From sequence record PV189400.1: a DNA stretch of 57,221 nucleotides; one strand, written 5' to 3'. Position numbers: made by a program. This document shows, in pieces, positions 9,001 to 12,000 of the stretch. The number at the start of each line of letters is the position of its first letter. Position 1 is the first letter of the stretch. This DNA is from Escherichia phage vB_EcoP_phi296.

Positions 9001-12000
9001 TCCTTGAGCGGGCAGAGGCCGCAGTAGTCAGCGCAGAGGAAGCCCGAAGCATGGCTGAGAATGCCAGAGGCCCCAAAGGTGATACCGGACCGAAAGGTGA
9101 TACGGGTCCTCGAGGGGAAACAGGTCCGGCGGGCCCTCAGGGGCCAACAGGTGCGCGCGGTGAGACAGGTCCTCAGGGTAGTGTCGGCCCGGCAGGTCCG
9201 CGGGGTGAGAAAGGCGAGCAGGGGGAGCGTGGACCACAGGGATTACAGGGGCTGAAAGGTGAAACCGGAGAACGTGGACCTCAGGGGGTACAGGGCCCGG
9301 CAGGCCCGACAGGAGCAACCGGACCGGCGGGTCCACGGGGTGAACGTGGTGAACAGGGCATACAGGGGCCAGCCGGAGCAACAGGACCTGTTGGGCCACA
9401 AGGAGAGCGCGGTATTCAGGGGCCTGCAGGTCCTGCGGGCCCGCGAGGTGAAACCGGAGCCAGAGGTGAAAAAGGAGACCCCGGGGACCCCGGCGGCCCA
9501 CCGGGACCAAAGGGTGATACCGGACCTGCTGGCCCTGCCGGTGAAAAAGGCGAACCCGGTGAGCGTGGGCCTCAGGGATTACAGGGGCCACCGGGTCCAG
9601 CCGGAGAGAGAGGGCCGACAGGCGAAGCCGGACCTGCGGGTCAACCGGGGCCCAAAGGAGACCCGGGTCCTGCTGGCCCACAGGGACCGGCGGGAGAGCG
9701 GGGAGCTCAGGGGCCTCAGGGTGTAGCTGGTCCTGTCGGCCCGGCAGGTGCAGCGGGCGCGAAAGGCGATAAAGGTGACCCCGGACCTGCTGGTCCTCAG
9801 GGGCAGCCCGGTCCTCAGGGACCTGCTGGCGAAACCGGACCCGCGGGTGAACCCGGGCCAAGAGGTGAGCCCGGTCCACAGGGACTTAAAGGTGACAGGG
9901 GCGAGCCAGGACCTACAGGCCCACAGGGACCGGCGGGAGAGCGGGGACCTCAGGGGCCACAGGGTGTAGCTGGTCCTGTCGGCCCGGCAGGTGCAGCGGG
10001 CGCGAAAGGCGATAAAGGTGACCCCGGACCTGCTGGTCCTCAGGGGCAGCCCGGTCCTCAGGGACCTGCTGGCGAAACCGGACCCGCGGGTGAACCCGGG
10101 CCAAGAGGTGAGCCCGGTCCACAGGGACTTAAAGGTGACAGGGGCGAGCCAGGACCTACAGGCCCACAGGGACCGGCGGGAGAGCGGGGACCTCAGGGGC
10201 CACAGGGTGTAGCTGGTCCTGTCGGCCCTGCAGGCGAACCGGGAGCGAAAGGCGATAAAGGTGACCCCGGAGGAACCGAACTGCTTGCTTCAGCCAATAC
10301 ATGGACTCAACCACAAACTATTAATGGCGATTTGACGGTAACCGGAAACGGCTCATTTAACGATGTTCAGATCCGTTCGGATAAACGTAACAAGCGAAAT
10401 GCAATACGAATAGATAATTGTCTGGAGAAGCTTGACCTGCTAACGGGTTATTTGTATGAAATACAGAATGCTGATGGCAGTTGGCAACAATCTGTGGGAT
10501 TATTTGCACAGGATGCGTTAAAGGCTCAACCAGAGTTAGTTACATCTGATACAGATATCATATCTGGAGAAGAGAGATTTCGATTAAATTATAATGGTGT
10601 TATTGCACTGTTAGTTGAAGGAATAAAAAATCTGCGTAAAGAGATTAGCGACCTTAAAGAGAAATAATAAAACAATCAGAGAACCATTAGTCTGAGGCAG
10701 AAGATAGTTGGTGTTATCGTCCGAATGACAGGAGGATGTTAAATGGGGGTTGCTTCCGGATGGGTTGGCTCCTCTGCCGTTAGTGTAACTGGTGAAAGGT
10801 CAATGAAATCGGCAGGTGCCAAACTTAAGCTAAGTACACCGTTTTATATGTCGCAAATGGTTGGGAAAAGTGTACAGGACTTTTCTATCACTGTAGGTCG
10901 TTCAAATTTTGTTGTTTTAGTTCAGGCAACAAATATACAAATTGTTCCTGTAAACAATAACTATGGAGGGTATTCTAATAACTCAACAACGACAGGTGCT
11001 GGCTCTGCCGTTTCCAGCCGTGTGCAAACACAAAATCCGGCTGGTTCAATAAATGGTTCGTTGTTAGGTTGTTCAATTACGCATCTTTCTCAAACGCAAG
11101 ACTCTACCAAGATGTATCTGGGCTTAACGAACGGGCCTAATCAAAACTTTACTCTATCATTTGATGGAACCAATATCTCATTCACACCATCATCATTTGC
11201 AAACAATACTCGGCATTATAGTGCAATAGTTTCTAAAAACTGGCTCTTTAATCAAAACGGAAAAACTATATCTGTTTATAAGGTTTAGAAGGAGTTGATA
11301 ATGTACAAATGTGTTTTAGCTGTATTGATATTATTATCTGGTTGCAAATCTTTGCCAACTCCGCTTTGCCATGGTAAAGCATATTTAGGTGGGGAAGAAA
11401 CTATAATACCAATTTATGGGATTAAGAAAAGCGGGAAGTATAAATTGTATCATGCAGGGCATCACTACAACTGGCGTTGGGTTGGTGCTGGAGCATTTGA
11501 CAGCACAACCTGCTCTCAAATAATGTAAACCGTATACTATGTATAAAATGTTTAGCTAATGCTAATTGATAAATTGTCATGAAACAGGCAAATCTGAAAT
11601 ACGTAAAGAAGCGCTACACAGCAGGAGATTTTTGTGTGGCTGGGTGCAGTGGCTGCCGTAATGATGCAATAAAAAGGGGAGCAACATGCTCCCCGACCAG
11701 AAGAAAGAAGTTTGATAACAATTAGTGAGTTGTTACGTCTCGTCCAGAATATCATAGCAACACTCTGTTGCAGTGATGCCGATCGCGATTTTAGCGAATT
11801 CCATCATAAATCCCCTGATTTTTAAGCCTGAAGCAGTCAAAGGAATTTCTATGCCTTATATCGATATCACCACGATGCGTGGGATGATGCCGCGCGTCGT
11901 GACATCCATGCTGCCCGATCATTCCGCTGTACTGGCGGAGGACTGCCATTTCCGGTTTGGTGTTATTACACCAGAACGTCAGATATCCGGGGTTGAGAAA

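Follow-up and report, generated by a model that had tools for sequence, protein, structure and literature searches.

Evidence for a very recent in-frame 243-bp duplication in the collagen-like tail-fibre shaft of Escherichia phage vB_EcoP_phi296

Escherichia phage vB_EcoP_phi296 (phi296) carries a gene for a predicted lateral tail fibre whose collagen-like shaft contains a tandem array of a 243-bp unit. We analysed a stretch of 57,221 nucleotides of this phage (sequence record PV189400.1, hereafter the window, to which coordinates refer unless another locus is named) and compared the array with alleles of the same gene in related phages and prophages. Judged by its sequence, the window phage is a short-tailed lambdoid phage of the Sepvirinae, of the 933W/phi24B type, and the gene is its lateral tail fibre. 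The array very probably reflects a very recent in-frame duplication of 243 bp, produced by misaligned exchange between two older repeats, a and a', that lie within the collagen-like shaft.

The tandem array and its three copies

Tandem Repeats Finder (TRF) reported one array, at 9675-10271, with a period of 243 nt, 2.5 copies, 98% matches, no indels and a score of 1145. The array is in frame with an open reading frame (ORF) of 754 codons at 8403-10667 (+), and each unit encodes 81 residues, or 27 Gly-X-Y triplets. An earlier note on this DNA had described a 243-bp tandem duplication of an 81-residue Gly-X-Y unit at 9675-10270, which these results bear out, and had taken the second and third copies to be identical over their shared length, which they are not. 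Between copy 1 (9675-9917) and copy 2 (9918-10160) there are two differences in 243 positions, G/C at 9705/9948 and T/A at 9716/9959, and between copy 2 and the partial copy 3 (10161-10271) there are five in 111. The latter differences are clustered at unit positions 68, 74, 76, 78 and 83, the two copies being equal at positions 0-67 and 84-110, and past position 110 the similarity stops.

The longest exact repeat is 269 nt (9717-9985 recurring as 9960-10228), so that 9717-10228 is perfectly 243-periodic. In windows of 30 nt, identity at a lag of 243 is 26-30 of 30 positions within the array and 4-19 of 30 outside it, the latter being the ordinary background of collagen-coding sequence; at a background identity of 65%, the chance of two or fewer mismatches in 243 positions is about 3e-42. 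The repeat is real and chance is excluded. Divided into a first part of 111 nt (a) and a remainder (b), copy 1 shares with copy 2 a b segment identical at 132 of 132 positions. Copy 2 is the unit that is missing in alleles of 2022 nt, and MAFFT places the 243-nt gap of these relatives at 9717-9959.

Copy-number alleles and the origin of the extra unit

Copy number was counted in 27 complete E. coli genomes with the full gene. Eight have an allele of 2265 nt, the length found in phi296, with 2.45 copies of the unit; 18 have an allele of 2022 nt, exactly 243 nt less, with 1.45 copies; and the remaining one has an allele of 1959 nt. Among phage records, the gene is 2265 nt long in vB_EcoP_phi367 and phi419, 2022 nt in phi315, Stx2 phage 86 and Shigella phage POCJ13, and 1977 nt in Stx1_2409. 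In a multiple alignment the 1959-nt and 1977-nt alleles are 1.45-copy forms with further deletions of 63 and 45 nt respectively, and every indel is a multiple of nine. The 63-nt deletion (window 10048-10110; L004 and L009) is bounded by a 10-nt direct repeat, AGCCCGGTCC, and the 45-nt deletion (window 9148-9192; L005) by the 5-nt direct repeat CAGGT; such short-repeat boundaries are typical of slippage, and the 1959-nt allele could also have arisen from the 2.45-copy form, through loss of 306 nt in one step between those 10-nt repeats. In one further E. coli strain, sequenced twice, the fibre gene is disrupted by IS600. A scan of IMG/VR with the fibre protein found no close relative (best match 60% amino acid identity), and a homologue search with the full protein returned E. 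coli collagen-like fibres of 424-901 residues, a selection swamped by collagen words in which identical and near-identical proteins were not among the returns.

Alleles of different length occur in phages that are otherwise almost the same. The fibre gene of phi296 is 100% identical to those of phi367 and phi419 and lies at the same coordinates, and positions 1-25000 of the window are 100% identical to phi419; against Stx2 phage 86 the same stretch shows 2 single-nucleotide polymorphisms (SNPs) in 24,757 nt plus the 243-nt insertion. The phage phi419 is classed as a different species from phi296 despite their identical first 25 kb, and phi296, unlike its relative phage 86, is a non-Stx phage. 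Three fibre-gene lengths are found among O111-type Stx2a prophages, namely 2265 nt (L007), 2022 nt (L008) and 1959 nt (L009). L007 and L009 both adjoin yfdC/mlaA, and the gene order of L008 is the same. Over 2 kb upstream all three are 100% identical to the window, as are L007 and L009 over 9 kb downstream, where the match of L008 is split by an insertion of ISEc22. Apart from insertion sequences (IS), L007 and L009 show about three mismatches over approximately 40-42 kb, of which one or more lie within the repeat at the edge of an alignment. Near-identity on this scale combined with a different shaft length indicates that length changes outpace point substitutions in these lineages. IS elements are common in the O111-type Stx2a prophages that carry the fibre gene, with IS1203 in the major capsid gene and in the terminase, ISEc22 in a tail-tip fibre gene and IS600 inside the fibre gene itself. 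Being so peppered with IS, many of these prophages are probably defective, and still fibre length varies among them.

The order in which the alleles arose can be approached through seven diagnostic sites that separate a, the first 111 nt of copy 1 (GT-GTCGC), from a', the partial copy 3 (CA-TCACA). All 1.45-copy alleles have the arrangement a-b-a', in which the starts of a and a' are 243 nt apart and 104 of 111 positions are identical. The same arrangement is present in a 94%-identical cassette of a lambdoid side-tail-fibre gene (L010, 2069-3658; its b carries a Gly-to-Glu change, GPQEQPG, and the Gly-X-Y register is broken at one triplet). It is also present in a metagenome contig (L099), the one contig retrieved by a scan for the b-to-a junction, which holds a 1.45-copy cassette of the lambdoid type. 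In both of these a is identical and a' departs at one site (CA-GCACA). Since a-b-a' is found in every 1.45-copy allele, in L010 and in L099, it is taken as the older state, and a and a' are, on this comparison, an ancient duplication that has diverged by 6%.

The middle copy of the 2.45-copy alleles combines the states of its neighbours. In the window and in L007 it reads CA-GTCGC, with the a' state at its 5' end and the a state at its 3' end, which places the joint within the 26-nt block 9960-9985. A second 2265-nt allele (L094 and L095) reads CT-GTCGC, its joint being in the 10-nt interval 9949-9958, and a third (L011 and L012) reads GT-GTCGC, its joint lying in 9918-9947. In all three the middle copy passes from a' (5') to a (3'), the polarity expected of unequal exchange. 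The GT allele belongs to a second SNP haplotype, shared with POCJ13, and resides in a different, stx-less prophage at another chromosomal site, next to ymdF/rutG. Because the joint lies elsewhere in the second and third alleles, the latter of which is in another prophage, expansion has probably been recurrent; the simplest reading is that at least two, and probably three, independent expansions took place. That the array is a recent product of slippage or recombination, and that its copy number varies between isolates, had both been anticipated by the earlier note; the near-identical relatives one unit shorter, the chimeric middle copy and the spread of lengths across related prophages agree with it on both counts.

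A mechanism that would generate these structures begins with an ancestral 2022-nt allele in which two 111-bp direct repeats, 94% identical, are arranged as a-b-a'. If a' on one DNA copy paired out of register with a on another, homologous exchange would give a-b-(a'/a)-b-a', and a backward template switch between a and a' during replication would give the same product. In phi296 the joint would have formed within a 26-bp block of perfect identity, and similar events at other points of a/a' homology would have produced the other alleles. Through direct-repeat recombination, a perfect repeat of 269 nt should greatly reduce the stability of the 2.45-copy allele relative to its parent, and the allele may contract or expand further. 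Given this destabilising effect, reversion to 1.45 copies is to be expected, and some 1.45-copy alleles may be secondary. Judging by the annotation of phi367, the phage has genes for Exo, a RecT-like annealase and Gam, and these could promote events of this kind.

Several points weigh against this account. The three middle-copy types could have come from one duplication followed by short gene-conversion tracts from copy 1, and for the CA and CT pair in particular a single expansion with short conversion tracts is possible. Unequal recombination and replication slippage lead to the same sequence outcome. Neither a 3.45-copy nor a 0.45-copy allele was seen among the alleles compared; an exact look-up of nine designed alleles (the 754-residue, 673-residue and alternative 754-residue forms, three of 3.45 copies and three of 0.45 copies) gave no match, and has no bearing on that absence because two alleles known from RefSeq were also unmatched. 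The direction of change is itself inferred, and loss of a unit from a 2.45-copy allele can restore a clean a-b-a'. Lastly, the source paper allows for more than one nanopore assembly of phi296, phi315 and phi367, and for chimeric assemblies or mixed lysates (PMC12502783).

The last of these points raises the prospect that the array was falsely expanded in assembly and that the true gene has 1.45 copies, and it is the case that the three phages with the 2265-nt allele all come from one laboratory. However, the identical 2265-nt allele is also carried by E. coli chromosomes completed by unrelated projects in the USA and Japan, 2265-nt alleles have three distinct junction signatures, and the array is just 597 bp long, in frame, and marked by diagnostic mismatches that no assembler would invent. 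With the same allele in independent complete chromosomes and three junction variants, an artefact is very unlikely.

On the question of direction, the observed a-b-a' would be regenerated exactly if copies 1 and 2 recombined after unit position 41, or copies 2 and 3 before position 68, and the 269-nt perfect repeat favours deletion. Were the 2.45-copy form ancestral and all 1.45-copy alleles deletions from it, the b units would nonetheless have remained identical at 132 of 132 positions while a and a' came to differ at seven of 111, and the middle copy would be a chimera of the outer two. The 1.45-copy form, moreover, is present on both SNP haplotypes, in several phage genera, in the 94%-identical lambdoid side tail fibre and in the metagenome contig. 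We regard such an origin as decidedly improbable.

A third possibility is that the extra unit came from outside the gene, by recombination with a paralogous collagen cassette in another prophage of the same cell. The O111 genomes have four places that match the fibre gene, the lambdoid side-tail-fibre genes provide a 94%-identical cassette, and the literature stresses mosaic exchange among prophages of enterohaemorrhagic E. coli (EHEC) (PMC3368898). The inserted 243 nt, on the other hand, contain no foreign SNPs, being wholly explained by a, b and a' of the same gene, and both the a' of the known paralogue (CAGCACA) and its Gly-to-Glu change in b are absent from phi296. There is very little probability left to an import, and duplication within the gene by misaligned exchange between a and a' is the explanation we retain.

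Architecture and length of the fibre

The fibre gene follows directly upon a tail adaptor gene at 7756-8406 (SU10_adaptor; Pfam E 2.3e-32), and the features of the locus are listed in Table 1. The same 2265-nt coding sequence (CDS) is annotated by RefSeq in E. coli prophages. Annotations are at odds over the start codon, Pharokka placing that of the phi367 fibre CDS at 8553 and RefSeq at 8403 (GTG); the latter is favoured because the Pfam matches to N-terminal domains begin at its first residue. Over its first 434 nt the gene shares about 80% identity with 933W L0121 and with the fibre genes of VT2-Sakai, PA2 and many other Stx phages.

Table 1. Features of the phi296 fibre locus in window coordinates, and IS sites in related prophages in the coordinates of the loci named
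Feature	Position	Strand	Residues	Basis and remarks
Lateral tail fibre gene	8403..10667	+	754 in all	ORF, GTG start overlapping the stop of the upstream adaptor gene; Pfam phage_tail_N/CarboxypepD_reg, Collagen, Peptidase_S74; PHROG 366 tail fiber
N-terminal domain, putative virion anchor	8403..8744	+	1-114	Pfam phage_tail_N (residues 1-114), CarboxypepD_reg (residues 5-83)
Ala/Glu-rich rod	8745..9068	+	115-222	Sequence composition
Collagen-like segment 1, 48 unbroken Gly-X-Y triplets	9069..9500	+	223-366	Triplet scan; Pfam Collagen
One-residue break after segment 1	9501-9503	+	Pro367	Triplet scan
Collagen-like segment 2, 86 unbroken Gly-X-Y triplets, holding the array	9504..10277	+	368-625	Triplet scan
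Repeat copy 1: a (9675-9785) and b (9786-9917)	9675..9917	+	425-505	TRF, lag comparison; diagnostic sites GT-GTCGC, pure a type
Repeat copy 2: chimeric a'/a (9918-10028) and b (10029-10160)	9918..10160	+	506-586	Diagnostic sites CA-GTCGC
Inferred recombination joint, 26-nt block CAGGGTGTAGCTGGTCCTGTCGGCCC, same in a and a'	9960..9985	+		Between last a'-state site 9959 and first a-state site 9986
Partial repeat copy 3: a'	10161..10271	+	587-623	Diagnostic sites CA-TCACA; probably the older, diverged repeat, in all alleles; 7/111 differences from a
Distal tip kept after predicted cleavage, ending ...NDVQIR	10278..10376	+	626-658	Aligned to S16 gp37 distal fragment 6F45
Peptidase_S74 predicted intramolecular chaperone, starting SDKRNK, plus stop	10377..10667	+	659-754	Pfam PF13884, residues 659-714, 33.6 bits against a cut-off of 22
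gp38-like tail-fibre adhesin	10743..11288	+	181 in all	Pfam Gp38_N E 1e-19 over residues 1-40; PHROG 1121 tail fiber adhesin E 6e-66
Cor superinfection-exclusion lipoprotein, travelling with the fibre/adhesin module	11295..11528	+		PHROG 1119 E 3e-33; RefSeq and GenBank annotations
IS sites in O111-type Stx2a prophages	L007 16254-17467; L009 1720-2933, 12258-13471; L008 26045-28380

By homology the first 114 residues would anchor the fibre to the virion; in phi24B gp61 the corresponding N-terminal domain binds the tail adaptor ring, and a coiled coil runs from residue 100 on (preprint 10.64898/2026.04.10.717836). By analogy the Ala/Glu-rich rod of phi296 is presumed to be a trimeric alpha-helical coiled coil. 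The two collagen-like segments together comprise 134 triplets with a single-residue break and match Pfam Collagen (PF01391) at E 1.1e-65, with 217.7 bits against a cut-off of 27.2. From the biochemistry and electron microscopy (EM) of the EPclA proteins (PMC3368898) and the model of phi24B gp61, the shaft would be a trimeric triple helix. At the C terminus about 115 residues align to the S16 gp37 structure 6F45 (E 2.6e-11), SDKRNK (residues 659-664) standing opposite SDRRIK of S16 gp37. The S-D-x-R-x-K motif is thus kept at the start of the S74 domain, and fits the cleavage sites DLNVS^SDRRIKK of S16 and DVYIR^SDGRLK of fPS phages (PMC7917993). The C-terminal chaperone is accordingly predicted, as the earlier note had proposed, to be cleaved off by its own activity, and the gp38-like adhesin is presumed, on the S16 model (PMC7917993), to dock on the cleaved tip. 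At 10278-11528 the tip module unites an S16/T2-type gp37 tip bearing the auto-cleavage motif with the gp38-like adhesin and Cor. The module of shaft, tip and Gp38 is present as well at the side-tail-fibre locus L010 of a long-tailed lambdoid phage, and therefore moves between podophage and siphophage fibres.

Other long ORFs overlie the collagen region off frame or antisense, at 9028-9879 (-), 8612-9076 (-), 9259-9726 (+), 9748-9969 (+) and 9991-10212 (+), two of them being identical 73-residue ORFs created by the duplication. They were dismissed as genes, since they look like by-products of the GC-rich periodicity of Gly-X-Y coding sequence, and a function of the repeat at the level of DNA was likewise dismissed because only coding periodicity is visible.

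The duplication would leave the N-terminal anchor, the gp37-like tip, the self-cleaving chaperone and the gp38-like adhesin unchanged, and lengthen the shaft alone. Triple-helix geometry predicts an increase from 107 to 134 triplets, or from about 92 to about 115 nm at 0.286 nm per residue, the duplicated unit contributing about 23 nm, figures which assume, as a reservation on the account as a whole, that the triple helix is continuous. A rise of about 0.29 nm per residue was validated by EM for a related prophage protein by Ghosh et al. (PMC3368898). Six lateral fibres are described for phi24B, gp61 having an N-terminal anchor, a coiled coil and a long flexible collagen-like shaft, and the authors argue that the lateral fibre is not the BamA binder (preprint 10.64898/2026.04.10.717836). 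The Sp5 homologue, ORF67, is found at the end of the tail and is essential (PMC5155283), and phi296, phi367 and phi419 were isolated as plaque-forming phages, blocked by BamA like others (PMC12502783). As carriers of the 2.45-copy fibre form plaques and the Sp5 homologue is essential, the longer fibre is probably functional. The selective effect of the added length may be nil.

Repeats of this kind are widespread in such genes. When TRF was applied to 80 distant collagen-like fibre loci from IMG/VR, several contained long, near-identical tandem repeats, among them 216 nt in 2.1 copies at 100% identity, 153 nt in 2.7 copies at 98% and 216 nt in 1.8 copies at 96-97%, and all periods of 45 nt or more were multiples of nine. 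Long tandem repeats are ordinary for collagen-like fibre genes.

This frequency bears on whether the a/a' layout is a selected length switch, or contingency locus, in which the pair is maintained because it allows steps of 27 triplets (about 23 nm) at a rate far above that of point mutation, supplying a standing mix of fibre lengths from which the thickness of O-antigen or capsule would select. Length changes do recur while the flanks are without substitutions over 11 kb, and copy number differs among otherwise near-identical lineages. There are also precedents in which the number of collagen-like repeats alters filament length or adhesion, in BclA (Sylvestre et al. 2003, as cited in PMC10470788) and in Lcl (PMC6460258). 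Yet length also varies in IS-disabled prophages, whose fibres escape selection and whose variation therefore fits neutral repeat instability, which would likewise predict the commonness of similar repeats in collagen-like fibre genes. There are, furthermore, two main states only, with no third unit added in any allele compared, and every podophage in the source study plates on K-12, irrespective of copy number (PMC12502783). We consider a selected switch unlikely, if less so than the alternatives to duplication discussed above.

Significance and comparison with known systems

What appears to be new is the specific series of alleles and their junction signatures, which give base-level evidence of how a receptor-binding fibre changes in shaft length, in phages and prophages by which Shiga toxin genes are disseminated. 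Should adsorption through O-antigen or capsule depend on the length of the fibre, the alleles could shift the host range of Stx phages; should it not, the array would still be of use, as a rapidly evolving marker by which O111 Stx prophages that are otherwise identical can be typed and as a site at which short-read assemblies can miscount copies. The conceptual gain is small because variable length in the collagen-like repeats of bacterial surface proteins is already well established. A literature search found nothing specific on tandem duplication or length variation in collagen-like tail fibres; the word 'duplication' does not occur in the study of EHEC collagen-like proteins (PMC3368898), nor 'collagen' in the paper on the phage set of phi296 (PMC12502783).

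Among bacterial proteins, BclA of Bacillus anthracis resembles the phi296 fibre in that its central Gly-X-Y region, the triplet count of which depends on the strain, is flanked by an N-terminal anchor and a C-terminal trimerising domain (PMC10470788). BclA, however, is an exosporium glycoprotein of the spore surface built from short units, whereas the phi296 unit is 243 bp, present in 1.45 or 2.45 copies, and its effect on length is deduced from sequence. Lcl of Legionella pneumophila, a collagen-like adhesin with a variable number of tandem repeats, shares the length-polymorphic collagen-like region (PMC6460258), but is a bacterial adhesin of many short units (11-18 repeats) for which a phenotype has been shown.

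Closer in kind are the prophage proteins EPclA-D of EHEC (Ghosh et al. 2012, PMC3368898), side tail fibres which, like the phi296 fibre, combine phage_tail_N, coiled coil, collagen and a C-terminal fibre domain, but which have about 111 collagen residues and other C-terminal domains. The fibres phi24B gp61, Sp5 ORF67 and 933W L0121 similarly follow the adaptor gene, are about 80% identical at the nucleotide level over the N-terminal 145 or so residues and have a long collagen-like shaft, differing in the sequence of that shaft and in the C-terminal module. The shaft and C-terminal module of phi296 are instead those of 'O86-specific region 1' of phage 86, with the S74 chaperone and the gp38-like adhesin. 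For the tip, finally, the nearest parallel is the gp37-gp38 complex of Salmonella phage S16 (6F45), to which the C-terminal 115 or so residues align, auto-cleavage motif included; S16, unlike phi296, is a T-even myovirus with a fibre shaft that is not collagen-like, and the adhesin of phi296 has 181 residues.

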